NCBI GenBank assembly: GCA_008632985.1
Contig: QPGO01000099.1
Coordinates: 62,001 to 102,299 of the forward strand
DNA from: Psammoneis japonica
Taxonomy: Eukaryota
Direction: 5' to 3'
DNA: 40,299 bases
This document shows, piece by piece, positions 1,575 to 40,299 of this stretch. The translations under genes and the position numbers were made by a program. The notes beneath the pieces are model-generated. The model was not told where the DNA came from and did no database searches. It saw only the letters and a list, made by a program, of their open reading frames with translations. Numbering within the stretch: position 1 is the first letter of the stretch; every line of letters starts with the position of its first letter.

Positions 1575-3830
1575 TCAAGAACCGAAACACCATGAGACCA
1601 AGATGATTCCCGATTGCAGAGACTGCTTTTTAGCAAAAACAACGCCCAAACCCAGCAGTCGATTCGTGCGGCTATTCTTCAGTCTTCCAGCCTTCCATGC
1701 TTTCTTTTGATAGCTCAACCAAAATCCAAGTCTCTTTCCATTTTCAATGTGGTGACAAGGCACTTTGCAACTTCCCTCGCACTCCGCAAATTGTTCTAGA
1801 GAAGAGAAAACATAGTCTCCCATTGCTCAGCCAAAATGTCCCACTCAACTCCAGCCTTCTCCAGTCGTTCTTGTCTAGAAGCATTAAGTTTTCCTTTCCT
1901 TTTGGCTGTCCGTTGCTTGATCAACCACCTTCCAAGGTTCTCCCCATCCTCTTTGTGACCGTGCAGCACCCTGCAATGGCCCTCACGCACCACAAATCGT
2001 TCAAGGCAAGAAAACACAGTCTCCCATTGCTCAGCAAAAACTTCCCACTTAACTCCAGCCTTCTCCAATCGTTCCTGTCTAGAAGCGTCCAGAGTCCCTT
2101 TCCTTTTGGCTGTCCGTTGCTTGTTCAACCACCTTCCAAGGTTCTCCCCATCCTCTTTGTGACCCTGCAGCACAATGCAATGGCCCTCATGCACCACAAA
2201 TCGTTCAAGGCAAGAAAACATGGTCTCCCATTGCTCAGCCCGAATGTCCCACTCCACTCCAGCCTCCTTAATTTTTTTCTTTGTCAATGTCAAGCTTGCC
2301 AAGCTTGCATTTTTGCCGTTGCTTCTGCGACCAACTTCCAAGGGCAAAGCCATCCTCGGTGCACATTTGTTGGGAACATCACAATTGTTTTCTCTCTCCA
2401 AGCAAACCAAGAGCAGGCTGCAAGCATGACTCCATTTGTCATCATTCACACTCCACTTGACTCCGCCTTCTTGAGTGCTTGTTGACAAGAAATGTCCAGC
2501 ACCCCATTCTTTTTAGCTCGCTGTTGTCTGCTTGGCCCCCAAATTCATCCCCTCCTCTTTGTGGCCACAAGGAACGTTGCAACTCCCTTCGCGGTCTCCA
2601 CACACCAAGAGCACATCGCACATGCGATCCCAGGAACTCTTGTCTTTGCATTCTCTGATTGCCCTGTGCATGATGTCATTTTTCTTTTCAAAGGACAATG
2701 AATCAGGAAGCATGAAGGAATCAAGGACACAAGGAGGGTGCTCATTTCTTCAAATGGCCTTCCAAGTCTGTTGCTCTCTTCAATCACAAACAAGACGTCC
2801 TGATGCAATTCAGGATCTAGACCAACCATGGCCTCAAAAGCAAAGGCAAACATTTTGCATCCATTGGTGTCCTTGGACAACAGTTCTTCATCAGAAGTGT
2901 TTCTGGCTCACACGCCCAATCATTTGTTGTGCCAGGACTGAACTCCGAACGGGATCAGCCACCATTGCAACCAACTCCCAATCTGCCTCGTCAACACCTG
3001 CAGCCAGTGCTTTCCAGTTGGCAATGATGGGTTTGGATGCAGACTTTCCTTTCAACAAACCTTTTCCCGTTTTGTGGCAGACATTTTTGGGCTGCCACTG
3101 ACAGGAAATGCAGCAATGTTGTCCTTCAAAAGGAGAGTCAAGAAGAGTCCGCAAACGCATGTGCCCGGGCATTTGCAGAGTGAAACGAGACTGCATGATT
3201 CACGTTGAGTTTGTGAAAAGCTGCTTGAATGGCAAAAGGCACCAGGGAATGATTTGAAAGATCATTTGAATGATGGGCATGTGGCCACAGATTTTGCCTC
3301 TGTCCAACACGCACAGCGCAATGGGAACCACAATGTTGCACTCTGCACTTTCCTGCAGTGTCTTCCTCTCAACACATGACCCAAACAATGGCTTGTCATC
3401 AAAGCTCCGAACAGCTGCAGCCTTGTGAGCCACAGTCTTGTCGTCCCTTTTCAGCGACAGAGTTTGTGCTCCAAACTTGTCAAGCTTGGATCCTGACATG
3501 GCAACTTGCTTCAGAGATTTGGTGCATCGACAAGGGGTGGCTGCAAGAAAAAGTTGACAGTCAATGGGAAGGATGCTGTTGTAGAGACCGCAACCAAACA
3601 AATTGCCAGCACCTTCCATCTTGTGTGCTTTGTCAAAGATGCCAAACCTGATGCTGCTGCCCAGCTTGTTTGAAGCCTTGCCAACCTTGGGCAATGAGTT
3701 GCACGTGCAGCTGACAAACTGCAACTCATCATCATTGGAAAAAAGAAATGCTGCAATCTTGTCAACAGATGTTGTGCATGCCTCAGATCGACTGGTTTGG
3801 CCAGCCGCAATCAATCTCGAGTGAGTCACA
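1575..3830 (-). pseudogene. Decayed SF2 helicase C-terminal part plus tandem helicase-associated (HA, PF03457-like) repeats, copy 1
   Basis: HA repeats of about 60 aa (WETMFSCLERFVVHEGHCIVLQGHKEDGENLGRWLNKQRTAKRKGTLDASRQERLEKAGVKW) at 1796-2488 and 1575-1823. Helicase motifs SCTCNSL, IFDKAH and LFLAATP at 3200-3829. Stops, frameshifts and TpA depletion. Confidence 0.8.
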
Positions 3831-4762
3831 TTTTGTCAAATGCTCCAGATGAATCCAAAACTCCCAGAACTTGATCCACAAGTGTGAGCTTTGGTGTTGC
3901 ATGAATCGCCACTTGCACTCCTTTGAATCACAATCTTGCAAGCATTTCAAGGCTGAGCAATGTTTCACCCCCATCCCCGGGGAAGCTGAGTGTTGGCTTG
4001 GTGGTGTTTCTCATCATCAGATGATCTCAGTGTGTCACCTGCACTTCCATTTGAATTGCTCCCTCTCCCCACAGAGGATTTGTTGTCATCTCCACAGCAG
4101 TGACTTGTGAGAGAATCAATGACATCATTGTGTTGATCATCACAACATTGACAGCAGCGGCTTTCTTGATTTTCTGTGCACGACACTTTGATTTCTGAAG
4201 ATCATGTTTTTGTTCTTTGATCAATCTCGCTGGTGATCATTCTGTGGTCTTGTTGCAGATGCTCAATCCCAGAACAGATCAGATCCTCACTTGAGTCAAA
4301 ACTCGAAACACCGCTTTGCTGAGAGTCCAGATTTGATGGCTCATGAACAAAATCGACAGCTGTGTTGTTCAGCACATCCAAACATGCTGATTTCAGGTGA
4401 GCTGGGCCTTGTGGCTTTGCATGGAAAACTTGCATTGGTTGAAATGACAAAGAGCCAGAACAACAGATGCAAATCAGCACATGAACCAGAAACGTCTTCA
4501 TTGCATTGAAACACACGCATCAACCATGGCCACGTTGTTGTCGGTGGTCAGAAAAAATCACGCGAACAACACAGTGATGCCATTGGCATGAAATTCTGGG
4601 TGGACGGTGGATGTGCCGGCCCTCATGTTGTGCTGGAAATGCACTTTTGGCAGTGAAAATTAATCGAAACGGTTTCTGATCTTAACAGCTTCTCTCACTT
4701 CATTTTGTCTGCTTTGCAAAACACACACACAAAAACAAACAAACAAAACAGGCAATCTGGCG

Positions 4763-5640
4763 ATGATGAGCAATCAGGCACTGCCATCTGCTGGCAACAG
4801 TTTGTCCAATGGCGACACTGCATCTGCAATGCCTGAAAGCAGCAGCGGTTCAGCAGCACCTCATGGTGTTCCCAACCGCAATGCAGCTGTTTGTGTCAAT
4901 GTCCTGTGGGGCAAACAAGGCAGAGACAACACGTTCAAATTGCAAACCAAGGTTGATCCACAGTCATTTGGTCCAACTCAGGGTCTGCAATTGTGAGAAG
5001 AAGACACTCAACAAATGAACTGACAAATGAACTGAAGGGCAGCTCTGGAAATGTGAGGAACAATGGTGCTTCAGAAACCCGGAATGGATCATCCCTGAAC
5101 GGCAACAATGCTCATCAAGCAAACGGGGGCGGTTTCACCATTCGCGTGAATGAAAATGGCATGCCTGCAGCAACAATGCAACCAAACAGAGCACGTCATC
5201 AAAATGGCATTGGAGGTTCGAACGCAGTTGGTGGTTTGGGTCCCAATGCTTGCACATCACCCATGGCTGGATGCAATGGTGCCGCACGGCCTGTGCTGCC
5301 ACCCTTGCTCCCTCAGCAAGCAGAGTTCAAGTCGATGATTGTTCTTCATTGAGCTTGAAATGTGCCATTTGTTGAGATGTCCTGCAAGATCCAGTGGGAT
5401 GTGGAAATGACTGTTCTGCAAGGTTTTGTCAAATGTGTTTGGAGCAGCACTCTGCTCGTGCTTGGGGCAGAAACGATGCACCCAAGTGTCCTTGTTGCCA
5501 AAGAGACACTCAATCAATCAAATCTGATGCTGAGTTCAGGAGCAACTCAAGGACATCATTGTGGAGCGTGCTTGTGGTTGTGATCAACAAGACATTGAGC
5601 TCTGTGATTGGAAGAGACACAAACACGATTGTCCGAATGT
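4763..5640 (+). pseudogene. Hypermutated RING-finger (E3 ligase-like) gene fragment
   Basis: From about 5355 reads LKCAIC*DVLQDPVGCGNDCSARFCQMCLEQ...KCPCC, a RING-type Cys spacing with an in-frame TGA. Preceded by low-complexity N/G-rich coding-like sequence. No TpA seen. Confidence 0.55.
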
Positions 5641-5649
5641 GAAGCTGCA

Positions 5650-6790
5650 TTGTGCCCACAAGGTCCACAAACAATTTGAACACCGGAAACAATTTGATCA
5701 GAGGCACCCCACTTTAGTGTGAGTGCTTGGGCTCCAAGCTCGCCCAGCTTGGATGTCAACACAGCAACTTGTTTTGGAGACTCAGTGCAACGACAAGGCA
5801 TGGCCATTGGGAACAGGCGGCAGTCAACTGGAAGCAACGAATTACAGAGTCCATGACCAAACAAATTTCCAGCCCCTTCCATCTCGTGCACTTCATCAAA
5901 AATGCCGAATCCCGCGCTGACTCCAAGCTTTCTAATGGCATCTCCTGCCTTGGGCAGTGAGTTGCAAGTGCAGGTGATGAAGGGCAGCTTGCCCTCATTG
6001 TGAGACAGAAATTCCACAATTTTGTCAATGGATGTCGTGCAAGCCTCAGCACGGCTCGTTTGGCTGGCCACAATCTGTTGGGAGTGAGGAATTTTGGCAA
6101 ACACACCAGATTTGTCTGTGGATTCCAATGCTCGATCCACCAGAATCAGCTTCATTGTCGCGCAAATGGCAGACTCGATTTTTGATCTAGATGGACCTGA
6201 TCCTTGTTTTGCCATCCTGGCAAGTGTTTCCAAACCAAGCAATGTTTTGCCCCACCCCGGTGGAAGTGCTGCATTGGCCCTGCGATGATGATCATGTGCG
6301 ACTGTGGAAGAAATCTTGTCTGAATGCCATCTTGAGTTGTTTCCATTCTCTCCTCCCAACGGTTTTTGGTCTCCACGATGACATTGCACGAGACATTCTG
6401 TTGTGTCATCATGACGGTTGCCTCGATGTTGACAGTTTGCTTGACTGTTTGATGATGCACCGGCACTTGGAGTTGTTCTTCTTGCAGTGGAGTGTTGCAG
6501 GTCTTGCTCACACTCACAATCTTGGGTTGGAAATGTCAGCTCATTTCGACAAAACTGTCAACATGCTTTTGGAAGAAACTCTCTTGGAGGCGGTTCAACT
6601 ACAAGCTCAACAAGACTGTCATTAAATGCTTTGACGGATGCCACTGAGAGTTGAAAAGCACTTTGTGATCTTTTTGGCAGTCCAAATCGCAGTGGCTGAA
6701 AAGATTCAGGCAGTTCAACTTGGAGCAAGAGGAGACATGGAAAGAGCTGTGAAGACTTCATTGTTCTTGGCATCTGCAGAGCAGCAAACT
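5650..6790 (-). pseudogene. Decayed SF2 helicase N-terminal part (motifs I-III), copy 1
   Basis: ORF 5556-6389 contains LPPGWGKT (Walker A), ITCTCNSL (Ib), IFDEVH (II) and RLFPMAMP (decayed TATP, III). Colinear with 23397-24660 on the opposite strand. Confidence 0.75.
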
Positions 6791-7084
6791 GTGCAATGTG
6801 CGATGGCCGTCACAAACCAGATGGTGAGTTTGCATGCTTGCGCGCAACTTCTGATCATCTGCACTGCTCTGTGCTCACCGGGCAGAACACACCAGAGGAG
6901 AGGTGACAAATGAGAGAGAGAGACAGAGAGAAACAGACTTCTCTTCTGCTGCTCAAGCACACCACACCACAGTCATGCTTGTCAGAAGATTGTGCCAGCT
7001 TCACAAAAATGTGTTTGGGGCAGAGGTCGACAAAACATGATTTTCCACCCAGTCCCGCCAGCCTCATGTTCATTCTTGCCAACT

Positions 7085-7690
7085 GAATGATGGCAAAGTT
7101 CAGAGATGGTGGCTCGGAGCATGTGTTGAGTTGTTGGCTTTGCAAGCCTTTGCCTCCAAAGAACACACAAGCTTTCCACTCACATGAGCGCCCCATTGTT
7201 GATTGCTGTGCAAGAAAAGCTGCCAACTTGGCTGCCTCTCAAATTGTGGCTGCACCACAGCCTTTCAAACGCAGTGTGTTGGTGGAGGAGTGTGTGTGTG
7301 TGTGTGTGTGTGTGTGGGTCCAGCTTGGGCTGTGCACTCACAAAGTGCACCAGAACAACTTCTCAAACCTTGAGTTGTTTGCTGCCTTCTGAAAAGCCAC
7401 CCAGGTGTGCCCAACACTCAAACTTTGGGTGCCATGTTGGCTCATGAAAACTTGGCACACAGATGACCCAAGGTTGATGCCCAAGAGGCAAAACTGGCAC
7501 TCAACACCAAAATGGCAGAGGCTCAATGCAAAGGGAAGCTTCCCATGGAAAATGGGCATGATGGGAAAGACTGAGGAGCATTGGAAATGCGTGGACCCCC
7601 CCATGAAAGCAATGGTCCCGGCATTGGCAGACTCTCACAACGGTTTCAGCACCACAATGGCGAGCATGACCATTTTGGTCAGTGCAGTCC
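7085..7690 (+). pseudogene. Hypermutated duplicate of the 3' half of the D-lactate dehydrogenase gene
   Basis: Aligns by eye to about 760-1310. Examples: gacccaaggttgatgcccaagaggcaaaactggcactcaa vs gacccgaggttgatgtacaagaggcaaaaatggcactcaa, and ggcattggcagactctc vs ggcattggcggactctc. Indels and frameshifts. Confidence 0.85.
7290..7316. repeat. (GT)n microsatellite inside the dld pseudogene
   Basis: About 13 TG units, absent from the intact dld copy (gaaggagtgcagggg). Confidence 0.95.
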
Positions 7691-7866
7691 ATGGAGCAGA
7701 GCAATTGCCATGTGTTCCTCATGCTCCAACTCTTTAGCTGGTCGAGAGCGGCAAGGTTATCTTCAACGATGACTCTAGCTGGTAGACGATGCAGTCTCCT
7801 GTGTGTTGTTTTCTATGTATCACTGCGTAGCTGACAAGAGTAATAAGAGCAAGGACATCATCTACT

Positions 7867-10499: not shown

Positions 10500-11960
10500 C
10501 GGCCATTCGCATTGCACTTTGATGTGTCTCGGCATGGCAAACATCGTGGGGCAGACGCATTTTGCATGTGTGATCTCTTTCTATCGCTGTCATGAAGAGG
10601 TTGACACATTGGCTTGGCTTCCTGGGGGGCTTTGGTTGTGACACACGGTGCAAACCGTTGCATGCATCGACTCGTGCCTCGATTGCTGCACACTGCGGGT
10701 TACATCTGAATGGTCGACAACATTGCCAAGGTGAGTTCTTCATGCATTTTCTCATTTTATTTCATTTCCCTGTTTGCTGAAGATTGTTGTTGTTTTTTGT
10801 TGCAGCTCACAAGGTGGGTTGATCGTCTCATGCGGTCGATTAAGATTCTGTAATGTTGGCATGTTGTTCAAGTCGCTGGTGCAGCCAAAGCACATCCGTT
10901 TGGGATCTTTGCACTTCGTCCCACTCTGCGTCCTTTGGCGCACCCAGTGTGCACATCAATGTGGATTTGTGATGTGCTTGGCATCCTTCTTGGGGGCTTG
11001 GTCGGCACATGATCACGGCATGCCGTGCATTCGGCCGTCACAATTTTTGGAAAGCGCGCGCCGTTGGAACAAAATGATGCGATGGAGCCTGGGGGACACT
11101 TGCAACATCAGCAATTGTCAGACAGTCTTGTCACAGTCCAAAAAAGGTGATCCTGTGAGTGTGCTCCAATTGTTTCATTGCTGGACTCGTTTTGACAAAA
11201 CTTGCACACCTCACGAGCCTTTTTTTGTGCGTCTCATTCATGCGTGCAGGCATCTGGTCTGTGATGAGCCTTTTTTCCTGTTCTGCAATCGATTCTCTTC
11301 ATTGTCTAAGACACAATGTCATCCACGTCATTTTGGGAGATCTTGGCAGTGCGCCAATGAGCCCAGGAGGCTTTGCACAGGGTAAAATGGGGAGGTCGAG
11401 GCTTGTGTTGGCGGGCTCATTGCCTGCTCTTGAATGTGCGGATGCCACGAACTGCTGATGGCACATTGGGGCACAAAAATTGGTGAGGCGACTCAGCTCT
11501 GCCTCCAAAAGGTGCCCTGGTGAGCACACTGTGTCATGTGATCCCATGTTGTTGTGTGCGTTGTTCCACTCATGTTTTTGTTTTGCCTGTCATTTTCCAG
11601 TGTGAATGTTGTTTGCTGTCACAGGTTGCAGTGGCATTTCCAGGCCCACATTCTAAATGAAAGATGTCTTTTGATGTTCCTCACTCACATGGGGAAATCA
11701 GATCCTGGAACTTTCTGCATCTGGTCGGGTCTCTAGAGAGGGAATGGATGGAACAATGTGGAGCCGGTTGCAGAAAAGTGATGAAAAAATGTTTGGCAAG
11801 TGCGCTGTTGTGTGTCGACTGTGGAGTCAGTCAGCTGTGGGTGTGTGCTTTTTCTGCATTTCTGTGAGCAACGAACCAGCAGATGATGCACCTGGACAGA
11901 TCATGCAGTGTTGTTGTTCTTCAGAGTGTTTGCTCCAGAGAGCAGAGAGCCACGACTGGC
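10500..11960. other. Hypermutated (TpA-free) sequence of unknown origin, probably a decayed transposon or gene
   Basis: Sharp compositional change between two divergent genes. Only Cys/His-rich short ORFs, with no motif I recognise. Confidence 0.45.
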
Positions 11961-12088
11961 TGGCCAGCTAGAGCAGATAGCTTCTCTCTTTCCCCTCCTC
12001 CTTTTCCTCTTCTTTTTTTCACAAACTTGGAGCCACCTGCGTGACCGGACACATGCCGAAATTCCTCAAATCCAAAATGAAACCAGCG

Positions 12089-26211: not shown

Positions 26212-26225
26212 TTACGGACCAGTGG

Positions 26226-26379: not shown

Positions 26380-26388
26380 CCCTCCCCT
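26380..26388 (-). promoter_or_regulatory. Polypurine tract (AGGGGAGGG)
   Basis: Immediately precedes the 3' LTR on the minus strand. Confidence 0.85.
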
Positions 26389-26491
26389 GATGAGCAATGC
26401 AAAAGCTCATCAAGAAAGAAAGGAGACAATCCAAGAAAAAAAATGAGGACCAGAATGGCAAGCCAAAGAGACACACAAAACAGAACAACAA

Positions 26492-29400: not shown

Positions 29401-31165
29401 CCAACATGTTTCACCATCACAACCAAGGTGTTCAGAGGTGCAATCTTCATTCTTGGAGGCTTGACCAGCAAAGGCAAAATCCACAGTGAGACCTTGACAT
29501 GGTTGAGTCGCCGTGCGAGTGGAGTTTGGTCCAGCAGGAGTCTTGACTTGTTTCGCCTGGATGCACGTTGGACAAATGTCAAGAACCGGATTGGCATGAC
29601 GGACGCGTTCCAGACGTAGGTGGGAATCCGTGTGACATTGGGCCCGTAGACTTCTACGTGCGAGCTCCGTAGTAAAATTATACGGTAATTAAAATGTCAA
29701 TGATCGCCAACAGAAAATGAGGCAATTTTTGCGAACGCACAAACTCGCACATGATTGAAGTACATCATTTTTTACTTATCCAGTAGTTACATTCTTCAGA
29801 CATTGAAGAATGTAACTGGCGCATTATTGTTTCTAGAAATTTGTTATATAAAACGTCTGGGGCTTCGCAAAACAGCGAGTCTGGACAATTTTTTTTAAAT
29901 ATCACACGTAGAAATCTACGTACGAAACATACGACGGATGATAAAAATTGTTGTTGTCACACGTCAGTACTACGAGCTCCCACCTAGGGCTGGAACGCGT
30001 CGACGGAACTTAGGAACTCCCTTGACACACTTGTGAACATGGTGCAAATGGTGATCGCTGGGATGTCCAAGGCGTTGGTGCCAAAGGAGACGTTCAGTCT
30101 CAACTTTCAGAGAGCGGACCGGGGTGGGACTTGGCGGAGGCGATGAACAATGGACAACAGAGTTGCACTGCATTGGAAACAATTCAGTGTCCATCAACCA
30201 AGGGTCAGACGGCGTTTGCTGAACATTGACATAAAAAATTGCACGTTGGCAGGCACCGTCAATGTCGTCAACCGGTGTCAAGTCAGAAGTCACAGGCATG
30301 GAAGGAGCATCAGTCAGAGACGGTGGGACTGGGGGCTGGGTAAAAACTTTTCCATGTTGGAGGATGCCATGGACAATGACCGCTTGAGTGTCAGTCGAAG
30401 CAGCACAGGCACATGTTCCATCAGCATGGGTCTTCTCAAGGGACTCGGAACGAATGGCTTTCGGTGTAAATCCAGAAGCCCGTGCAAAGTTGCGTTCATC
30501 AATCAGGGTGGAACAGAGGCTGGGATGGTGGAAAGTGCGAACAAGAAGGAAACCATCAGCATCTGCAGCAGGTGCGCCTGCAGATGACCAAAGCCATGAG
30601 GGATCGTGTCAGAGCCTTCAGCAGCAGGGAGCATTTTCAAAGGACAGGGGTCATCCGGACCAAATGGAGTGCAGGCATGGAGGAGTTGTTTGTCTCCGGC
30701 ACATGACACCCAAGCACCAGTGTCAATTTGCGCACAGCAGATCGTTGAATCACGTGTTGCATGGTTGATGGGGATGACGGGGGTGGTCAAGGAGTCAAAC
30801 GTTGTGGGTGCTTCAGGCAGGGAAAAAATCGGAGAGATGCGTGCTGCACTCAAAGGTGAGAGATGTTGGTTGGTGTCCACATCGATGTGCTCAAAATCTT
30901 GATCGTGGTCAGTGGAGAGAGAGATGTCGTTCTTGCTGGTGGATGTTTCATGAGAAGGTGTTGCCCTCCCCTGATTGGTGGCATCAGGGTCATCATCTGG
31001 AACAGTGTTGAGATCCAGGTTTCCAGTCTTTGTTGAGGGTGATGGGAGGTCAGCAAATGAGACACGTGAAAGAGGTGGTTCAGCGGGAGGTGACAAGTCT
31101 TTGGGACCCTCTTTTGGAGTTCCCCACTGGCATGCGGTTTCGGATTGGGAGGTGACGGGCAGCAT
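26492..31165 (-). pseudogene. pol: Copia pol (protease, integrase, RT, RNase H), frameshifted
   Basis: IDTGA (PR), LWHQRLGHPS...CPTC (IN zinc finger), DQGGEL and FWPHAF (IN core), LKHALQGHPE and HQVDDF (RT), SSTEAEF, HIDIRHF and NPADIPTK (RH). Confidence 0.92.
29602..30001. mobile_element. 400-bp MITE with 24-bp TIRs (2 mismatches), 4-bp TSD GACG and a central palindrome
   Basis: TIRs gacgcgttccagacgtaggtggga and tcccacctagggctggaacgcgtc. GACG at 29598-29601 and 30002-30005. Excision restores the integrase frame GVPKFRHANPVLDICPTCIQAKQ. Confidence 0.93.
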
Positions 31166-33179
31166 TGTTCATCCGAACGTAACAACGGCCCTGGGAAAAA
31201 TCCGTTTTAGATTTTCCATCCTTGAGGGCTTCTTGGGCATGACGGTCACGTTGAAGGAATTGGCAGAAGCGGATGAGATGGGCATGCAGGCACTCAGCAT
31301 TGTTCAAGACCGGACACTCGTGGAACAAGTGGTCATCACCACATGCAACACATGGTCGAGAGTGGGCAACAGCAGGAGAAGACTTGATCCTGCAGACACA
31401 AGCCTCACAAATGCCGTGCAGTGAAAGTTCATTTACAAAGCACTCCACAGTTTCCGCAGGTTCTTCGACAGGGGTGGGAGCAGTTTCCATTGAAGGTTCT
31501 GGAGCAATCGGAGGTGGATCTGGTGCCTCGTCCTTGGGTGACAAGTCAAGGGCTCGAAGAGGAGCTGCCAACGGAGGATTGGCCAGATTCTGGTCATGGA
31601 GGCATCGTGCAGGACATTTGGGAGGATCCTTGACACGAAGAGCAGGACTGCCCGGTTCCTTGAGAATTGCAGCAATCGTCTCGACAATCTTCTTCTGAGT
31701 GAATTTGTGTTCCTGACTCTTGTCTTCCCCAGTGGCAACTGTCTTTTGATGCAGGTGCTCTCCACATTGAGCATTGCTGACAAAGACATCCAGCTCACCA
31801 GGATCATCAAGAGAGGCATCAACATTGGAAATGATGGCCCGCAGTTGGAGGAAATCCCTGAACAGAGTGCAGCAACTGAGAATCGTGAGATTGTTTTGGT
31901 GCGGGTGGCTTTTGATCAGCTCATGCGGGCGCTTGGTCCAGATCGGAAGAATGTCAAATGGGATCATCTTGAGGGCAGCATGTCCGTCTCCACAGCATTG
32001 GCGAACAACATCAGGATGCTTGGAATCGGCTGGGAAAATTCCAGCCTTCTGAATGTGCTGAAAAAGTGCAAGCTTCATGCAGTCAAGGGGTGCACGCATG
32101 CGAAGTGGCAGGTCATCAGTTGGGTCATTGCCGCTCGTGAAACCCCAGTTGCCACTGTCCTTGATGAAACACCAGAGAGGATGCATGCAGATGCCACAAG
32201 CCGAGGCTTGTTGGGTCACTGCAGTGCACCACGCTCGGATTCCTTGAGGTGAGATGTCGTCGCACGTCAAAGGATCACGGAGAAAAGACTTGGCATCCCA
32301 ATCAGTGCAATGGACAAAGAGGGAACCATCTGCGAGGATGAGACATTCAGTGCCGTCTTCACAGCAGAGGTTTCCCAATTTGCAAGGGACTGGTGACTTC
32401 CCAAGTGCTGCTTTCCCAGATTCCTTGCATTCACAGCAAGCCCACACGTCTTTTGGAAGTCCTTTCAGGTTGAAAGTGTGCAACGCACCAGCAGCAGTCG
32501 ATGAAGAGGTTGTGCCAGTGGCGGTCATGGCAGATGGTGCAGGAGACAACACCTTGGGAGTGGAGTTCTTCAGCGCATTTGTCACAGCTTGCTCAAACTG
32601 TTTTGGACCAGGTGAATGAGCAGCCAAGGCCTTGGCAAAATCTTCAGGAGTCAGACCTGCAGCAGCAGTCAATTGAGATGTAGATTTTGGAGGAGACGCT
32701 GAAGGTGGGTGTGGAGTGTCAGAGATGTCATCCCAACACAGACAATTCTCGAAACCAGGGCAAAAGAAGAGACTGACAGTCTCAACACAGACCGTCATGG
32801 CATCTTGACCATCTGAGATCGCCTTGATCACAGCCTTCTGAAGATTGGCAAAGTTCAGATGAACCGGAGGAGCTTCAGGAGCAGCCACAAAGAGAGGAGC
32901 TTCATCCACAATCGGTCCAATCCATGCAAGATCTTCAGTCAACACAGCCTCAGGGATGATGAGGTCATGAACAATCTCATGACGGAGAACAGCAATGGCA
33001 TCGCTCTTGAGGCCTTGAGGAGCAAATCCGTCCAGAAGTTCTTCAGGAGCAGGCATCTCATCGGGATGAAGGACGTTCAGGTGATGATGGGCACCTGGCA
33101 AGCGATTTTGCTGTTTGAATTCGACCTGTGTTGACTTGATCTTGGCCAAATCGACGGAAGTTTGCTTGGTCGGTGCCAT
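31080..33179 (-). pseudogene. gag: Copia gag (699-aa ORF, hypermutated)
   Basis: Lies between the 5' LTR and protease. Zinc knuckle CVACGDDHLFHEC. Only one Tyr in 699 aa. Confidence 0.8.
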
Positions 33180-33371
33180 GGTTGCATGGGAAAAAAATCA
33201 AAATCCCATGTAGAATGCTGGCATGTGTTCTGCGGTGGTCGTTTGATCACAAATCGAGAGGTGAAAAAACAGCTGTGACAATGGTGACGATTTCAACGAA
33301 GAAAAAGTCGCCAAATCACACAGCCGGCGCTGCGGCAGAGGAGCGTGGAGGAAGAGGAACAGTGCACTGCT

Positions 33372-33380
33372 GCTCACAAC
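33372..33380 (-). promoter_or_regulatory. Probable primer-binding site (GTTGTGAGC, possibly mutated GTTATGAGC)
   Basis: Directly follows the 5' LTR. Resembles the internal half-tRNAiMet PBS (GGTTATG(G/A)GC) used by copia/Ty5-type elements, with one TA>TG change (inference). Confidence 0.5.
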
Positions 33381-33381
33381 G

Positions 33382-33535
33382 CATCGGGACAATCCAACGG
33401 ATGCCCAGGACAGATGACAATTGCGCGCTAGATGAGAAAGAAAGTGAGCAGAGAGAGATCATCGGATCTCTCAATGCTGTCTGTGCCAGTCTGTCCGAGA
33501 CAAGGGAGTGCACTCCCCGTCTCGGATGTCTGTCA
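33382..33535 (-). repeat. 5' LTR (154 bp)
   Basis: Direct repeat of 26226-26379, with 15 transition differences counted by eye. Confidence 0.92.
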
Positions 33536-33665
33536 GGAGTTGTTTTTTGCCAACAAACAGAGTCTGCAATGCAAGGATCTTCTTGGTCTTGCTGGTGTTT
33601 CTGTTTCAAAGAATGAAAACTGTTCCATTGAAATCGATTGTGCATGGCTCCTCTTTAGAGTGCAT
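33536..33665 (+). pseudogene. 3' end and flank of helicase/HA copy 2, separated from the rest by the copia insertion
   Basis: ggagttgttttttgccaacaaacagagtctgcaat...gaatgaaaactgttccattgaaat aligns to the reverse complement of about 1530-1650. Confidence 0.8.
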
Positions 33666-33829
33666 GAGCACTGCTGCTGCAAACCATGAAAACAATTGCT
33701 TCAGAAATGTTTGTGTGTGCAGTTGCACTTCATTTGTGTTTTTGGCCAACCACTCCAGCCAGAGGGTGCCTTCATGATGGGTTGGCTCAAATGCTTCTGT
33801 TTTGTTGTGAGAGTTCTTGCACAGCATCG

Positions 33830-33833
<4 letters not shown>

Positions 33834-33870
<37 letters not shown>
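33834..33870. repeat. (TC)n microsatellite
   Basis: About 18 TC units. Confidence 0.95.
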
Positions 33871-33873
<3 letters not shown>

Positions 33874-33949
33874 CAGCTCAACATTGCTGCTCTGACTGGA
33901 GCGGAGCTCTGTCTGCTGCAGAGCAGCAGCAACAAACTTTTGCATGAAA

Positions 33950-36300
33950 CGATCTCTGCCCTGTGCAGATGGCTGCAATCATGAAACCCTTTCCTTCTTC
34001 CACATTGACCAGCATTTGTTTGTTTTGCCATTGGACAAAAAACATTGCAGCCGCTTCTTTCTGTTGTGTGGGTGATGGGCAATTGTGGTTTTAGATGAAG
34101 TGTGATGACCCTGTGACAACATGTGAGATGGAGGAGCCACAATGTGCGCTGCAGCAGGAGTCAGCAACAGAGAATCAAAAGATTGTTTGGCACTGCCTTT
34201 GTCAACACATTTGCCATTTTCATTGGCAATGCACTGGCCATTTTCCATTGGGATCTCATTTGCACCCCCCAAGGTGTGAGTGTTTGTGCACCAGGGTTCT
34301 GCTGTGGCTCTCTCCTGCGGAAGCAGACACAGTTGCAGTCTAAGTCCAAAACAAACTGTGCCAAAGTTGCCGCTCTGTGATGCACTTGTTTTCATTTTCC
34401 TTGTTGGCTGAGTGCAGATGTTTCCTTGATGCAAAGAAGCCAAACAACGTGCTTCATTCATCTGTGAAACAGCTGCGTTGGTGTGAACTTCATGACAGCT
34501 GGCACAGCATCCAGAAAGAGTTTTTCTTCTCAGGGAGTGAAGTGGGTGAGGTTGTGGCAGTCTCTGACTCAACGTTTGGCAGTCCAATGACTCGAGTGGA
34601 GCCAGATGCCACCTTTGCCATCAACGGGGGAGAGGTCTCAAATCCACGACACATCATGAAAGTCCTCAAAGAGGACTGAGCCAGTTGACTGTGACAAAGA
34701 GACAACTTTTCCAATCTCAAAAAGATGGCCAAAGACTTGGACTTGGGCATTGAATTCAGTCCCCCCCTTGTTGCCATCCGTTGCCACATTGTCTTTGCAT
34801 GTTTTCTTGACAAAGGTGTGCACCACCTGCAGCACCACTTTTTTCAGTCGCTGTGATCTGGGCTGCAAAAAAAACACAACAGGTGCTCTTTAACTTTCTG
34901 CAGTGTGCATCAAAGCATCAACAACATTGCATTGCCTCTTTGTTCTCCAGCACTGCAAGTTGGGCTGCCCGTTGATCTGTGCCAGCACAGCCTCCATCCA
35001 TGCCAATGTTGAGGTTGTTCAAGTCAGATTTGCCGCCACACCCAAATGATTTTGCAAAAAGGGGCTGGACACAATTGCCAGTCAATTCATTCTTTTGTTT
35101 AAAATGCACACCATGAAGCAGCCAAGAACATGATGATGTTGTTGTGTGAGACAAATGAGCATGTTTCATTTTCTCTTCAATCTCACCCAGCACATTTGTC
35201 TTTCTGAGTCATTGCCTTGGTCGCCAGCAATCGCCAATGACACAATCCTGGAGGCAATGGCAGACACATGAGCCCTGATGACAACACTCCTTTTCATTTC
35301 ATTAAAGGCACCCTCAAGGTGACAAATGAGTGGGTTCTCTTGGCAAGCTTGGTGGCCCTCTCTGTGCATTGCATTGCAACGGCTTTCTCCACATGGACAC
35401 CCACTCTGCCTTTGATGTGCAACCCTGTTTGACCTTGGCTTTGTCAAGCAGCCCTTCTGGATCCAACAACACTGAAGAGAGTGCACTGCAAGCTTGCAGC
35501 ACAAGCACAGCAGAGAACAATTTCAACACATGCTCACAAGTCATTTTCAATTTAGTCGTGGGCATTTGGTGCACAAACTCAGAGTCCTGTTAAAAGAGCA
35601 AATCTGCCACAAGAGCAAGTGGTGGTCATTCCTCTTCTCTCAGGTCTAGAACATTGCTTGCATGACTGTCCTGAATGTGTCACACCTCTGACACAAGTGA
35701 CTGCTGGGGTCCTTGTCAATTGACCTCTCCAGTCTTTCTGCTGTGCATGTCCTTTGCCTCCTCAAATGGTTGCATCATCCACAGGTGGGTCACAAACAAA
35801 GAGATCTTCATGAAAATCTGCATTTTTGTCATCACCGTGTGATCGTGCTGTTCTGCATCACACCTTGCCCAAAAGCCTGGATCATGAAAAAATCAGAGAG
35901 ATTTTCCACTCTTTTTGTGCAAGTCAAAGATTGGTTCAGTGTCATCCTCACATTCAGAATCACTGTCAAATCACAGCAAAGGCAGCCTGTCTCTCGGGCC
36001 TGGCACATTGTCAGCACCAGCAGCCAGCATTGTGGGGTTTCCATCCACACCCAACTCCATGTTGTCATGTCCAAACGTGCCGACACTGTTGTCAAGTCCC
36101 TCCTTCGTTGCTGTCAGCATGCTGGCTCACTCGAGCAGAGGAGATGTGAGAAGCCAAGCCAGCAACATTTGACACCACCTCCATGCTGCTGCCCATTGGT
36201 CCTTGGATGGTGCTTTGCTTGTTGGATGGCTTCTTAACAGCCACTGATGTCACTTGCACGTCTCCTCTCGATCTGACATGCCGACAGCAAATTTGCACAT
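33950..36300 (-). mobile_element. Heavily hypermutated relic, possibly a piggyBac-like DDE transposase
   Basis: TpA-free block. SDLNNLNIGMDGGC (about 34987-35030) back-mutates by two TG>TA changes to MDRGY, a DDE-transposase-type motif. Otherwise unrecognisable. Confidence 0.35.
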
Positions 36301-36328
36301 TTCAATGTTCTACCGGCACGCATGGGGT

Positions 36329-36483
36329 GCGGCTGTCGCCGCTTTTCTCGTTTGTCCTCGGCGGCGATCTTCAAGCTAGTGTAAATCTAAAGGCCAGTGA
36401 TCCAAGGTGGGAGTGGAGTGGGCTTCACTGGCACACGAACTTTCCTTCTCCAAACAAAAAACCCAGGCTGGACGGCAAGGGCC
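36329..36483. repeat. Terminal direct repeat B2 (155 bp)
   Basis: Identical to 36651-36805 except TG (36408-9) vs CA (36730-1). Confidence 0.95.
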
Positions 36484-36650
36484 AGAGGGCGGGAGAGGTG
36501 GGAGCGTTTTAATCTGTCTGCGGGCCGGCTTGCTGTTGTTGTTTCCAAAAGAATGAGAGGAAACAAAGCAGCCGGTGAGAGAGGCGGCCAGGAAGTTTGG
36601 GAACTTTCAAATGGAATGGGGAATCTCGCCTTGCGGATTGCTCGAGGACA

Positions 36651-36805
36651 GCGGCTGTCGCCGCTTTTCTCGTTTGTCCTCGGCGGCGATCTTCAAGCTA
36701 GTGTAAATCTAAAGGCCAGTGATCCAAGGCAGGAGTGGAGTGGGCTTCACTGGCACACGAACTTTCCTTCTCCAAACAAAAAACCCAGGCTGGACGGCAA
36801 GGGCC
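36651..36805. repeat. Internal direct repeat B1 (155 bp)
   Basis: Matches B2. The 167-bp spacer 36484-36650 is the presumed A2 repeat. Confidence 0.95.
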
Positions 36806-36905
36806 TCCAGCCACCTCCAAATGCATTGCATGAGCTGCGCAGGGCACAGTGGAGGCTGTGACAAATTGGGTGGGAGAGGTGGGATCGTCTGGCGGGCTGT
36901 GGCGG

Positions 36906-38081
36906 TCAAGGCATGGCAGGAGCAATGGGAACGTCGGCATTCGGATGGAGGACGAAGTGGCCACCGGCAAGCATGCATTGGGTGAAATTGCGCATGACAG
37001 GCTCCGCTTGTAGATGGAGGCATCGGAGCATTTCGTCGGACCGCCATCGGCCCAAGAGACGAATTGTGTCCGTGTCGACTTGGGCACACAGCAATCCCAT
37101 GGCACCCACGGCTCGAAGGCAGCGCGCGGAGACATCGGAGGGAAGGAATCCGAGATTCTGTGGACCAAGTGCAGTGACGGCAGTGCAGAGGATGGACGTG
37201 ATGTCAGTGGGACTGACTCGGTGCCAGCGTCCGTTGCAGAAGTGGACTGACAAAGGTGTGTCAGGCAAAGCGCCAAGGTCGCGCAAGTGAAGCATTCGGC
37301 GTACGGCAGCTTTGACGGGGCAGAGTTGCGGGTGGCCGGAGAGGCCAAGGCCGACAACTTCGCCACGAACTCCATTCTTTTGTGCAGTGAAGGTGAGCGT
37401 GGTGAAGGTTGCAGCGGCGAGCTGCGCGTCTGGGGTGTGGAAGACACCCAAACAGATGCCACCAGCGGAGAGGCGTACATCGGCGAGCCGAAAAGGAGCA
37501 GTCTCTGAAGGGGTGGCTGTGCACTCACCAGGACACAAGAGAAAGAAAAAGGCAAGGGCGATCATGTCAGCGACAGCATGGGTGCCGGGGTGCTGACTGG
37601 CAGCAGCAGCAGCCAAGATCCAATGGAGCACGGCCACGGGGACAGGTTTTACATGGTCGGTGGGCGGATCCTGCTTCTTGCAGTAACGGATCTGGCGGGT
37701 AAGACGGAAATCCAAGCCGCCTTGGAGGGTGAGCCGTGGGTCCGGGGCCCCCATTGCAGCGAACGTTTGGCCAACCGACCGCAGGGCATCTTCAGCGGTG
37801 CGTGCACGGACGGGATTGCCACGTGGGGCAAGGACTCCGACTCGACATCGGTGGAGGAAGACTTGGAGGAATAAGATGGGGTCTTCGACTTCGACAAGGA
37901 GTGGATCGACGGCCAGTGTGTGGTAGAAATTGGCCCAGAGGTTCCAATGGGTGTCGGCGGCGGAGGCTCGTGAAGGGGTGACTGCGAGGGCAACGGCTCT
38001 CTGTGCAGCACCGAGGTCACGAAGGAAATCAGCTTTCGTGGCGGGGTCCACAAGCGCCAAGGTTTGGTCTGCGGGTAACAA
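36906..38081 (-). pseudogene. Tyrosine recombinase, ORF open but catalytic residues mutated
   Basis: AFFFLLCPGEC (expected LLRPGEY), QKNGVRG, SARCLRAVGA and LGRWRSDEMLRCLH (expected LRYLH). Confidence 0.88.
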
Positions 38082-40156
38082 GCATTAAAATGGTGCAAAA
38101 ATTCCGTGTCAGTCAGGGATTGTAAACGGGAAGCATCGTCAGCGGCGGTGTTGAGGGTGCCTTGCAGGAAGTCGTGAATGGTGACGTGACGATGGAATCG
38201 TTGATGGCAAGCTTGGCAGCGATGGAACTCGGCACGAAGCTCAGAGGCAGTGGAGGAACCTTTGCGTTGCCAGAACAAAGCACCTGAACTGTCAGTGCGC
38301 TGAAGGTTGGTGTGCTCCCGCAGGTCGAAACATTCGGATGCAGCGCATGTGTGGACGATGCTGCCCACGAGTTCAAGGTCGGTGTTGGTGATCGGGCCGT
38401 GAGGATTCTCGTAGGTGGCGAGGTCCTGGGTGACCTGGTTTGGGAAAGGCACACGCCAAACAACGGGACCGGGGTTGGTTTGAATGCGGCGGCGTCCGTG
38501 TGGACTAAATTTTAGTTTGGTGGCGCGTGGGACGGAGGCTGCGGTGGGTAAGATGACACCGCCGGCGCCATGACCGGCCGCATCATGGCAACCATGGACA
38601 CTCGGGTCCAAGGGGACAAGTTCTTGAATGCGCACCGGGCGTTGTTCGACGCATGCNNNNNNNNNNNNNNNNNNNNNNNNNNNNNNNNNNNNNNNNNNNN
38701 NNNNNNNNNNNNNNNNNNNNNNNNNNNNNNNNNNNNNNNNNNNNNNNNNNNNNNNNNNNNNNNNNNNNNNNNNNNNNNNNNNNNNNNNNNNNNNNNNNNN
38801 NNNNNNNNNNNNNNNNNNNNNNNNNNNNNNNNNNNNNNNNNNNNNNNNNNNNNNNNNNNNNNNNNNNNNNNNNNNNNNNNNNNNNNNNNNNNNNNNNNNN
38901 NNNNNNNNNNNNNNNNNNNNNNNNNNNNNNNNNNNNNNNNNNNNNNNNNNNNNNNNNNNNNNNNNNNNNNNNNNNNNNNNNNNNNNNNNNNNNNNNNNNN
39001 NNNNNNNNNNNNNNNNNNNNNNNNNNNNNNNNNNNNNNNNNNNNNNNNNNNNNNNNNNNNNNNNNNNNNNNNNNNNNNNNNNNNNNNNNNNNNNNNNNNN
39101 NNNNNNNNNNNNNNNNNNNNNNNNNNNNNNNNNNNNNNNNNNNNNNNNNNNNNNNNNNNNNNNNNNNNNNNNNNNNNNNNNNNNNNNNNNNNNNNNNNNN
39201 NNNNNNNNNNNNNNNNNNNNNNNNNNNNNNNNNNNNNNNNNNNNNNNNNNNNNNNNNNNNNNNNNNNNNNNNNNNNNNNNNNNNNNNNNNNNNNNNNNNN
39301 NNNNNNNNNNNNNNNNNNNNNNNNNNNNNNNNNNNNNNNNNNNNNNNNNNNNNNNNNNNNNNNNNNNNNNNNNNNNNNNNNNNNNNNNNNNNNNNNNNNN
39401 NNNNNNNNNNNNNNNNNNNNNNNNNNNNNNNNNNNNNNNNNNNNNNNNNNNNNNNNNNNNNNNNNNNNNNNNNNNNNNNNNNNNGAACCCATCGGACATG
39501 TCTATTTTCATGAGGTAGACCCGTCCTTTGGCGGGATTGGCAAGGAGAATGCGACGCAAGAGTCGATTGAGCGCGCGTCCAAATTGCACAGCCTCGACTG
39601 GTGCGTCAGGCTGTGTGGCGTCGTTGGTGCCAAAATGCGTGTAGTCGACAATTGGCCGAGGCCGTCGACTGTGTTGTGGGACCACGCCAATGGGGCTAAT
39701 GCGGAGGCCCGGCAGTTGTCGGACTTCCTCGTGCGGGACCACGACCCAGAAACCCTTGTCCACATGGTCGGACATGTCTTCTCGTAAAAACTCGACACAT
39801 TCGTAGGCGGACTTGTGGGGGCCCCTGTCGATGCTAGCGTCGAGTTCCTCAGAGCTCCATGGTGCGTCGGCAACGGTGATGGGGACTCCGTGATGCTGGC
39901 AGTGGCGAAGGATCCGGCGTGCCGGATGATTCTGAATGCGGCGCATCGGGCCCAAGTCACCTCGTCCACGACGTTGACGCAACAAATGGCTGAGACCGTG
40001 CTGACACAAAATTTTAGTGTCGCGCACAATGCTCTCACCTGATTTATCAGTTTCAACTGATGCAGCAATCGCCTGTCCACGGAGCGTGGGGCGGCGTTGC
40101 TGTTGACTAAACTGCACCACCTGCGGGGGTGGCGGAGGAATGGGCACCAGGTTCAC
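37649..40156 (-). pseudogene. Reverse transcriptase / RNase H of the YR retroelement (spans an assembly gap)
   Basis: ISPIGVVPQHSRRPRPIVDYT, QFGRALNRLLR and KIDMSDGF (RT). HDAAGHGAG, ITNTDLEL and NTAADDASR (RH). Confidence 0.85.
38657..39484. other. Assembly gap (Ns)
   Basis: Run of n. Confidence 1.
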
Positions 40157-40299
40157 AGTCCCCGAACTGGAACCATTGCCGACGACCTGTTCGGTCGTCC
40201 AATGCTCGGCCGCCCATTCGTAGAGGGTGTTTTGCTCTACCTCGGTGTGGCCGGTCTGATGGTCATGACTGCTGCCACAATTCGTGTTGCATTGGCCTT

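Follow-up and report, generated by a model that had tools for sequence, protein, structure and literature searches.

Organization of the locus

The DNA analysed here, a 40,299-nucleotide (nt) stretch of contig QPGO01000099.1 from the diatom Psammoneis japonica (positions 62,001 to 102,299; hereafter the window, numbered from its first letter), carries genes of ordinary composition separated by three blocks of repeats and pseudogenes in which the dinucleotide TpA is almost absent (Table 1). An intact gene for D-lactate dehydrogenase (D-LDH) lies at the start of the window. Block 1 holds helicase pseudogenes together with a duplicate of the 3' end of the D-LDH gene, block 2 is a non-coding repeat, and block 3 is a nest of repeats that includes an inverted second copy of the helicase pseudogene and a degenerate Ty1/Copia retrotransposon with long terminal repeats (LTRs), itself interrupted by a short insertion resembling a miniature inverted-repeat transposable element (MITE). 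The evidence assembled here shows hypermutation of these copies, by which TpA has been turned into TpG or CpA, site by site, with the flanking genes spared.

Table 1. Features placed on the window, with the evidence for each
Feature	Coordinates	Strand	Evidence
D-LDH gene, intact, 3' part; reading frame open to window start	39..1310	+	Pfam Lact-deh-memb 3.5e-60
TA-poor block 1: helicase pseudogene pieces and captured or duplicated gene fragment	1886..7734	.	TA counts, borders, X1 contigs
Helicase pseudogene copy A, near full-length ResIII/DEAD-Helicase_C-HA-repeat	1635..4396	-	Pfam, tblastn
Second helicase fragment, N-terminal, same family as copy A	5658..6761	-	tblastn of P0130 residues 1-378, 44% identity
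D-LDH 3'-end duplicate, hypermutated	7205..7670	+	66% identical to 865-1307
TA-poor block 2: non-coding repeat of high copy number, with shorter repeats of 130-180 nt inside	10852..12492	.	TA count, depth, repeat families
TA-poor block 3: nested repeats (helicase copy B, Copia element, unclassified DNA)	23269..36234	.	1-5 TA per kb outside the MITE-like insertion
Helicase-HA pseudogene copy B, in opposite orientation to copy A	23396..26212	+	69-84% identical to copy A
Ty1/Copia LTR retrotransposon, degenerate (gag, integrase, reverse transcriptase, RNase H)	26228..33535	-	tblastn, Pfam RVT_2 and SH3_retrovirus
Copia 3' LTR	26228..26379	-	152-nt direct repeat with 33384-33535, 91% identical
MITE-like insertion, 403 nt, ~24-nt imperfect terminal inverted repeats	29601..30003	.	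read directly from sequence
Copia 5' LTR	33384..33535	-	pair of 26228-26379
GC-rich stretch (58%), weaker TpA depletion	36235..38656	.	TA o/e 0.23, CpG o/e 0.88

TpA is missing from the repeat and pseudogene blocks

Observed/expected (o/e) dinucleotide ratios were computed in 1-kb bins along the window. Throughout the bins of 2001-7000, 24001-29000 and 30001-36000 the TpA o/e is 0.01-0.08, which amounts to 1-5 TA per kb where 56-74 are expected; the TA-poor bins have a CpG o/e of 0.09-0.60 and a combined TG+CA o/e of 1.48-1.86. Bins that bear genes show a TpA o/e of 0.45-0.78, in agreement with a preliminary description of this DNA, according to which the adjacent genes have plenty of TpA. That description had also put the number of TpA in 1801-7700 at about 17; the exact count is 17, against 396 expected from base composition.

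For a pooled estimate, we combined the TA-poor DNA of 1886-7734, 10852-12492, 23269-29600 and 30012-36234 (20,045 nt in total) and predicted its dinucleotide counts by applying to it the o/e ratios of the window's own normal DNA. TA occurs 53 times where 764 are predicted (Poisson P = 4e-249), such that about 93% of the predicted TpA is missing, and CG occurs 491 times against 1246 (CpG o/e 0.40). TG and CA are in excess, with 2059 observed against 1434 predicted and 2104 against 1486, respectively (o/e 1.6-1.7). Because the joint excess of TG and CA (1243) is larger than the CG deficit (755), loss of CpG alone is insufficient as its source; the TA deficit adds a further 711. Within this 40-kb window the TpA o/e is 0.04 in the blocks versus 0.60 in the genes, and GC content is 0.495 in the blocks versus 0.47 in normal DNA. 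These counts confirm that the shortage of TpA in the repeat and pseudogene blocks is real and that the genes between the blocks are normal.

Judged from the positions of TA, the block borders are sharp, within about 100 nt, at ~1885/2050, 7735, 10851, 12493 and 23268; those at 7735 and ~1635-1885 appear to fall where the transcription units of the AAA-ATPase and D-LDH neighbours are expected to end (3'). The three depleted regions recognized in the preliminary description are all found, but the second begins near 10.85 kb rather than at 10.5 kb, and the third, which had been drawn as a single block from 23.3 to 40.3 kb, is broken by the TA-normal MITE-like insertion and is more weakly depleted past 36.2 kb, where the TpA o/e given in Table 1 is followed, beyond a run of 828 N (38657-39484), by one of 0.34 in 39485-40299.

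The loss of TpA has a marked effect on apparent coding capacity. With TAA and TAG stops gone, the six frames across 17.7 kb of TpA-poor sequence (1700-7800, 10700-12600, 23200-26300 and 33500-38650) contain 98 stop-free stretches of at least 80 amino acids (aa), most of which must be false open reading frames (ORFs). The tyrosine counts reported earlier for two long ORFs hold, with no Tyr in the 514-aa ORF and one in the 699-aa ORF. A Pfam domain search of the window's ORFs found no deaminase domain.

The TA-normal gene region also contains duplicated DNA. Segmental duplications pair 14495-16001 with 16589-17535 and 15161-15907 with 20121-20815 at 79-85% identity, take in a further copy of the U-box gene region, and have no TpA depletion. 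Since these duplicates are TA-normal, duplication by itself is no trigger of TpA loss.

Contents of the blocks

Block 1 is not a classical transposon. Homologs of its helicase (P0130, P0131 and P0147), which have ResIII, Helicase_C and HA domains, align by tblastn from 4396 down to 1635, and Pfam places an HA domain on 1799-2512 of the minus strand (8e-35). Internally, 3464-3850 matches 5727-6111, and the only output of Tandem Repeats Finder is a 204-nt HA-domain repeat. A search for homologs of the helicase ORF among longer proteins gave nothing. The ResIII-Helicase_C-HA family is very small: an exhaustive search of 1.8 billion representatives returned 38 relatives at E ≤1e-3. On copy B, in block 3, the helicase homologs cover 23936-26212 by tblastn.

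Block 2 contains 9 TA in all, and its bin 11001-12000 has a TA o/e of 0.10 and a CpG o/e of 0.48. Repeat families D6 and D12 are located in it, and Pfam gave no match there. The summed depth of contigs from the public sequencing run X1 is 300-960 over 10006-12673, as compared to ~55 on genes, which identifies block 2 as a member of a high-copy repeat family.

The Copia element of block 3 is covered by seven Copia homologs from 32339 down to 26501 in several frames (tblastn), and its reading frames are broken by frameshifts and stops. Its closest named relatives come from Nitzschia inconspicua. A purine tract adjoins the 3' LTR, and no recognisable target-site duplication was found at the element. 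One candidate case of tyrosine loss was discarded: the reverse transcriptase motif, first read as a YVDD that had lost its Tyr, is RQVDD in the lineage consensus, and the HQVDD of the window is a CpG-type change of Arg to His.

The MITE-like insertion sits in the integrase region of the Copia element, where it splits the protein alignment between ~29634 and ~29985. With 30 TA in its 403 nt (TA o/e 0.87) and a CpG o/e of 1.56, it is normal for both dinucleotides. Either the insertion came in after the hypermutation or the process passed it over; it could serve as a timing marker.

Direction of change inside the window

The D-LDH gene, which is TA-normal (o/e 0.46), serves as the reference for its duplicate in block 1. 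Its best match shares 71% identity with it, and relatives from Thalassiosira, Ditylum, Cylindrotheca and Mayamaea share 57-63%. The duplicate covers the last ~150 codons of the gene. None of the gene's eight TA sites is TA in the duplicate, which reads CA at four of them, TG at two and CC at two; among 22 CG sites, 12 have become CA, six TG and three something else, leaving a single CG. The products of these changes are themselves better preserved, with TG kept at 28 of 35 sites and CA at 17 of 33. The five aligned tyrosines of the gene correspond to three His, one Cys and one Met.

Tyrosine codons, which begin with TA, provide a second test. Using seven homologs with a normal tyrosine content (2.7-3.8%), we collected 982 columns of the Copia alignment in which at least four homologs were aligned and at least 75% of them agreed. 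Only two of 39 conserved tyrosines are kept in the window (16 have become Cys (TGY), 12 His (CAY) and four Phe), as opposed to 568 of 943 other conserved residues (Fisher P = 1e-12). The replacement of conserved Tyr by Cys or His in transposable elements, as first described from the letters alone, thus accounts for 28 of the 39 columns, and coding capacity has been destroyed through it, in line with the earlier proposal that the mutation inactivates the repeats. Leu has become Pro through CCA seven times and Val has become Ala through GCA three times, as expected from CTA and GTA. Of 72 conserved Arg, 32 are kept, eight have become His and three Cys, which is the CpG component. The helicase pseudogenes behave in the same manner: in 1700-7800 (copy A and the N-terminal fragment) none of six conserved tyrosines is kept (three Cys, two His, one Phe), versus 13 of 13 Trp and 37 of 41 Gly in conserved columns, and in copy B none of three is kept (two Cys, one Leu).

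A third comparison is offered by the two LTRs of the Copia element, which differ at 13 of 152 positions, exclusively by transitions. Six of the differences are CG against TG or CA, two are TA against CA, four make up two doublets of TG against CA, and one is of another kind, such that changes at TA and CG steps greatly outnumber ordinary substitutions. Since LTRs are identical at insertion, the changes at TA and CG steps by which they now differ postdate integration.

Copy-specific loss of TpA in environmental relatives

Metagenome contigs were scanned with an alignment of four full-length Copia homologs, and 79 loci were taken from the best 80 of 368 matches; a scan with the window's own mutated reverse transcriptase piece gave 81 pattern matches and no relative. 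The window element itself is too divergent from the metagenome loci for polarisation at the nucleotide level (the best high-scoring segment pair is 65% over 494 nt, and pieces of 67-95 nt reach 76-82%). Within environmental families, copies are 82-89% identical, which allows changes to be polarised directly. Over whole loci, the TpA o/e of the 79 ranges from 0.15 to 0.86, most lying at 0.5-0.8, and five loci have values of 0.31 or less together with raised TG+CA: L065 (0.15), L048 (0.24), L025 (0.26), L047 (0.30) and L071 (0.31).

When the TA-normal copies L016 and L017 are used as references, the TA sites of the reference are seen to be converted in the depleted copies. L016 has 89 TA sites against L065, where 35 are CA, 27 are TG and 14 are still TA; against L048 it has 159, of which 55 are CA, 47 are TG and 31 remain. 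For L017 and L025, the 58 sites facing 1215-2500 of L025 have become CA 27 times and TG 25 times, with two kept, and the 49 sites facing 2501-3660 have become CA five times and TG five times, with 37 kept. L025 accordingly switches from TpA-erased to TpA-normal near 2500, within one Copia copy.

The change is one-sided. Of the 20 TA sites of L065, only three are CA or TG in L016, as compared to 62 of 89 in the forward direction, whereas CpG changes between the same two copies are symmetric (27 versus 21). A one-sided change of TpA beside a symmetric change of CpG indicates that the TpA process is copy-specific and separate from CpG decay.

All four polarised comparisons (gene against duplicate, tyrosine codons, LTR pair and environmental relatives) agree in pointing to the conversion of TpA into TpG and CpA. 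The preliminary description had proposed a real TA>TG/CA mutation rather than a native composition, and the gene and duplicate, the tyrosine columns and the environmental copies all polarise the change as it had supposed.

Target context, strands and mode of change

To describe the target, A>G changes per adenine were pooled over four copy pairs and both strands; the pairs share reference copies and are not fully independent. At TpA, 284 of 851 adenines are changed (0.334), as compared to 0.069 at ApA, 0.057 at GpA and 0.119 at CpA, the last value being inflated because the reference copy has itself undergone CpG decay. The preliminary description had named polarised substitutions by trinucleotide as a check on A>G excess at TpA, and the environmental relatives supply that excess: 0.334 versus 0.057-0.119 elsewhere. 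Within TpA, the rate depends on the 3' base, from 0.456 at TAT and 0.394 at TAC to 0.245 at TAA and 0.217 at TAG; with a 3' pyrimidine 195 of 461 sites are changed, versus 89 of 390 with a 3' purine (chi-square 35, P = 3e-9).

The few TA dinucleotides that survive in the window's blocks have the complementary bias. YTAR, in which the adenines of both strands are followed by a purine, makes up 35 of the 53 survivors versus 103 of 660 sites in normal DNA, and RTAY makes up one of 53 versus 231 of 660 (chi-square 84, P = 6e-19). By both data sets, the target is T-A-pyrimidine (T-A-Y), a feature absent from the preliminary description.

Both strands are affected about equally. The blocks contain 2059 TG and 2104 CA, the Copia tyrosines have gone to Cys 16 times and to His 12 times, and the pairs of L065, L025 and L048 give 99 TG and 117 CA (binomial P = 0.25). 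The numbers of runs of TG-type and CA-type events (35, 56, 28 and 27) are close to the shuffle means (31.5, 51.7, 26.8 and 31.0). The two types of event are interleaved at random, and there is therefore no processive burst on a single strand of the APOBEC or ADAR kind. Because both strands are equal, the events are interleaved and DNA other than retroelements is also affected, the changes must have arisen in chromosomal DNA rather than in RNA or cDNA.

Support from sequencing reads

Contigs of run X1, at a depth of ~55, span 1-20000 and carry the same TA-poor sequence, and the sequence of block 1 is backed by X1 contigs at single-copy depth. One such contig, 1458 nt long and lying on 5860-7279, differs from the window at seven letters. 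Among the listed differences between the window and these contigs (40 of 275 rows), 28 lie within 2568-7190. Seventeen of the 28 set CG against TG or CA and are ongoing CpG polymorphism or differences between paralogs. At a further five, a CA or TG of the window faces TA in the contig; one short contig at 2568-2619, probably a less mutated paralog, carries four of them. The X1 contigs exclude a gross assembly error, not a platform artefact.

A similar hypermutation in Bigelowiella natans

A signature of the same kind has been described once, very recently. In a preprint, Mettrop et al. report TpA-restricted hypermutation of integrated DNA of nucleocytoplasmic large DNA viruses (NCLDV) and virophages in the chlorarachniophyte Bigelowiella natans (bioRxiv 10.64898/2026.01.13.699255). 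In mutation-accumulation lines, 231 of 302 new mutations fell in two integrated viral regions, and all but one of the mutations in the viral regions were A>G or T>C, all of those at TpA (bioRxiv 10.64898/2026.01.13.699255). The rate given there is ~6e-7 per site per generation, ~1000 times background, hypermutation was seen in only 11 of 15 lines, and an ADAT2-like protein is put forward as a candidate enzyme, with reference to reported DNA activity of amphioxus BjADAT2 and Trypanosoma ADAT2 (bioRxiv 10.64898/2026.01.13.699255). The preliminary description had known of no such system, a statement that this preprint supersedes.

Footprints were delimited in that work by a Rho TpA no higher than 0.43 and a Rho CpA+TpG no lower than 1.52, in three or more clustered 1-kb windows (bioRxiv 10.64898/2026.01.13.699255). 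The pooled blocks pass these cut-offs (Rho TpA 0.04, CpA+TpG ~1.66). Across the bins of 2001-8000, 24001-29000 and 30001-36000, TpA is 0.22 or less and TG+CA lies in the range of 1.48-1.86, two bins (1.48 and 1.50) being just under 1.52.

The likeness extends to several features: only A:T>G:C at TpA, yielding TpG or CpA according to strand; sharply bounded selfish or foreign regions beside a normal genome; chromosomal DNA as the substrate; and probably non-uniformity, which concerns some lines in B. natans and some copies among the environmental relatives. By comparison with that account, the window signature is the same as that of the TpA-only hypermutation of B. natans, and is not categorically new.

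There are also differences. The host here is a diatom (Stramenopiles), as opposed to a rhizarian, and the targets seen comprise an LTR retrotransposon, the helicase pseudogenes, a piece of a host gene and a non-coding repeat, as opposed to the giant-virus and virophage insertions described there. Depletion is near complete here (o/e 0.04), as compared to 0.45 in the NCLDV region given there. Strong CpG decay is co-located with the TpA loss in the window, and the 3' pyrimidine preference is evident; the main text of the preprint makes no mention of CpG or diatoms and, figures aside, has no statement on flanking context. What is new here is the transposon and pseudogene targets, the near-complete erasure, the T-A-Y context, the lack of strand coordination, the separability from CpG decay and the copy specificity. 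Full-text literature searches found no report of TpA-only hypermutation in a diatom.

The rate was measured in lines in B. natans, whereas here the signature is known from end-point sequence alone, from which rough kinetics can be drawn, on weak numbers: ~7% of TpA and ~39% of CpG survive, and the LTRs carry one difference outside CG and TA steps per 152 nt. On these weak numbers, the TpA rate would be at least two orders of magnitude above that of ordinary substitutions, in line with the ~1000-fold excess measured in B. natans.

Relation to fungal RIP and to CpG decay

Fungal repeat-induced point mutation (RIP) proceeds by C>T changes, mainly at CpA, which create TpA, and it is linked to a premeiotic stage and to RID/DIM-2-type methyltransferases. 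RIP (in Neurospora and other fungi) resembles the process in the window in that irreversible, dinucleotide-specific transitions accumulate in repeated or selfish DNA, leaving genes intact and destroying the coding capacity of transposable elements. However, RIP creates TpA and enriches AT, whereas the blocks of the window lose TpA and have a slightly higher GC content than normal DNA; RIP mutates both copies of a duplicate, whereas the D-LDH gene is intact here, though purifying selection could explain that. Being opposite in direction, the process in the window is not a member of the fungal RIP family.

Decay of CpG through deamination of 5-methylcytosine (5mC) accounts well for the CG component of the window, which comprises the CpG o/e of the blocks, 18 of 22 CG sites in the D-LDH duplicate, six of 13 LTR differences and 17 of 28 contig differences. 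Diatom transposons are CpG-methylated by DNMT5a (PMC9998398), and the CpG decay in the blocks is best explained, by analogy, as a result of such DNMT5a-dependent transposon methylation, which would be the route of the co-located CpG loss. 5mC decay cannot remove TpA, and between environmental copies CpG changes symmetrically and TpA one-sidedly, which marks the two as separate processes. The preliminary description had held the TpA loss to be distinct from CpG decay and opposite to RIP, and on both counts, with TpA destroyed rather than created, its view stands.

A candidate mechanism

Read from the copy comparisons, integrated silent or selfish copies are shown to have undergone transition hypermutation of chromosomal DNA at T-A-Y, site by site, with the flanking genes spared. 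For the pattern as a whole, the best explanation, which we hold with moderate confidence, is TpA>TpG/CpA hypermutation of repeat and pseudogene blocks, brought about most likely by an adenine-deaminating enzyme that acts on individual copies. The most economical chemistry would be deamination of adenine in DNA to hypoxanthine, which would then be read as G. Enzymes of the TadA/ADAT2 type act on tRNA A34, after U33, and the bacterial TadA loop reads U-A-C-G; the triplet preferred by ADARs is UAG. A TadA/ADAT2-type deaminase would be the likeliest candidate agent, because its natural tRNA target is an A that follows U33, a T-A context in DNA terms, and by analogy the U-A-C-G of the TadA loop would match T-A-Y more closely than does the UAG preferred by ADARs. 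As tRNA deaminases, TadA and ADAT2-ADAT3 bear on the window as a candidate mechanism only.

Such an enzyme would be aimed at silent or foreign copies one by one, and would act in episodes rather than constitutively. The untouched MITE-like element, the copy-specific environmental pattern and the differences between B. natans lines together argue for action that is episodic or specifically directed. The D-LDH fragment is mutated though it is no transposon, which suggests that targeting follows local chromatin or copy state, not transposon sequence. The outcome would be irreversible inactivation of the copy, as Tyr is turned into Cys or His and Leu into Pro and TAA and TAG stops are lost. The preliminary description had called the process domain-restricted: it is confined to repeat and pseudogene blocks, but it has left untouched the TA-rich MITE-like insertion that interrupts the Copia element. 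We infer the defence role, the targeting signal and the enzyme from this pattern.

A number of observations weigh against this interpretation. The samples that polarise the change inside the window are small (eight TA sites, 48 Tyr columns and 13 LTR differences), and in the D-LDH alignment, an unpolarised and small comparison, A>G also occurs at 18 of 104 adenines outside TpA. The helicase copies A and B show 63 mismatched TG:CA doublets among 197 double differences, a number that CpG decay alone could about equally produce, for which reason we rejected these doublets as proof of independent TA loss; much of the TA loss in the two copies may be shared and precede their duplication. The switch inside L025 is either a sharp border of the process or an assembly chimera. 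Read support consists of contigs only, and X1 probably derives from the sample behind the assembly and hence is not independent. The untouched MITE-like insertion argues against a constitutive, purely domain-wide process, and for its normal TpA one has to suppose a recent arrival, action in episodes, or targeting that depends on copy or length. At the palindromic TpA, A-directed and T-directed chemistry are indistinguishable. Finally, the association with repeats is drawn from one 40-kb window.

Alternative explanations

The chromosomal signature could be real without any dedicated adenine deaminase or defence, as a by-product of replicating or repairing silent, methylated chromatin; error-prone repair or misincorporation at a flexible TpA, mispairing of a modified thymine or adenine, and a T-directed reaction are examples. 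The palindrome conceals which base is attacked, the independent, strand-symmetric and unclustered changes suit a slow bias of chemistry or repair no less than an enzyme, and the presence of CpG decay in the same blocks makes a common chromatin state probable. Against this, the change is copy-specific among copies 82-89% identical (L065 being altered at 62 of 89 TA sites and L016 not), with CpG symmetric; the MITE-like insertion is untouched within its block; mutation in B. natans concerns some lines only; and the specificity is extreme, being limited to transitions at TpA with a 3' pyrimidine. We know of no repair bias that removes >90% of one dinucleotide, and consider such a by-product an unlikely source of the pattern.

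Editing might instead have preceded integration, by ADAR-like A-to-I conversion in transposon RNA or by a deaminase acting on cDNA, in the way of APOBEC-hypermutated proviruses. The largest annotated target is an LTR retrotransposon, ADAR hyperediting and APOBEC3 editing of cDNA resemble the proposed agent in being deaminase-driven hypermutation of selfish elements, and ADARs favour a 5' U, as noted in the B. natans preprint (bioRxiv 10.64898/2026.01.13.699255). However, such editing is strand-specific and clustered, on RNA or single-stranded cDNA, whereas the changes described here are about equal on both strands (whether counted as Tyr>Cys and Tyr>His or as TG and CA), interleaved without strand coordination, and found also outside retroelements, in the helicase pseudogenes, the D-LDH fragment and the non-coding repeat of block 2. 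The two LTRs differ mutually at TA and CG steps, changes which are post-integration; APOBEC moreover gives C>T or G>A, not A>G. TAG, the triplet that ADARs prefer, is the least affected context. Strand symmetry, interleaving, non-retroelement targets and LTR differences largely refute pre-integration editing, which we regard as very improbable.

Equally improbable is a native or selected poverty of TpA, due to avoidance of UpA in RNA or to a TpA-poor donor genome, with no hypermutation at all. Moderate under-representation of TpA is general, and is present in the window's own genes, but the o/e of the blocks is far under that of all 79 related loci, 37 of the 39 conserved Tyr have given way to other residues, in frames disrupted by frameshifts and stops, and the host-gene-derived fragment has lost eight of eight TA sites that its parent kept, a comparison of D-LDH gene and duplicate by which we judge this reading refuted.

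Modified bases cause systematic basecalling errors on some platforms, and a sequencing or assembly artefact, such as methylated repeats in which modified bases at TpA and CpG are systematically misread, would draw on that and on the fact that the sole run with this stretch, which provides contigs only, was probably made from the sample that was assembled; an artefact is nonetheless highly unlikely given that X1 k-mer contigs at ~55-fold depth reproduce the TA-poor sequence, that the blocks also show indels, frameshifts and 15-35% ordinary divergence, that the same copy-specific signature appears in independent metagenome contigs of several record-name series, and that in B. natans the signature consists of new mutations in Illumina data.

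Implications

It is possible, and we advance it tentatively, that diatoms and chlorarachniophytes share an enzyme system that would edit adenine at 5'-T-A-Y-3' directly in the chromosomal double-stranded DNA of single selfish or foreign copies, a RIP-like A>I defence that might be ancient in, or even beyond, the grouping of Stramenopiles, Alveolata and Rhizaria (SAR). If so, there would exist a natural editor of adenine in DNA with a defined three-base target, acting on either strand, site by site, until a copy is dead for coding. An enzyme that edits adenine in DNA naturally would be of interest to base-editing research.

In the literature searched, TpA-only hypermutation is described by one 2026 preprint, on one rhizarian alga, with no mechanism named. 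The occurrence of the signature in diatom and environmental transposons indicates that the process is no peculiarity of one species or of viral insertions, and that it can drive transposons and pseudogenes to near-total loss of TpA. The constraints on the enzyme (chromosomal, on both strands, non-processive, copy by copy, at T-A-Y) make a search for it feasible, and diatoms include transformable model species. For genome annotation, TpA-poor, TG/CA-rich windows would be a simple genome-wide marker of silenced or foreign DNA in such genomes; gene callers will over-predict in TpA-erased blocks, and dating by LTR divergence will overestimate the age of affected elements.

Other observations

In the GC-rich stretch beyond block 3, a 392-aa ORF at 36909-38084 of the minus strand resembles clusters of diatom hypothetical proteins, and one related cluster has Phage_integrase on 34% of its members. 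As a lead only, 36235-38656 may hold a tyrosine-recombinase element of the Crypton or DIRS kind. In the gene region, a contig of a second run, X2, skips 182 nt with GT..AG ends at 19064-19247, which suggests that the skipped segment is an intron and that X2, recorded as 'DNA?', is RNA-like.

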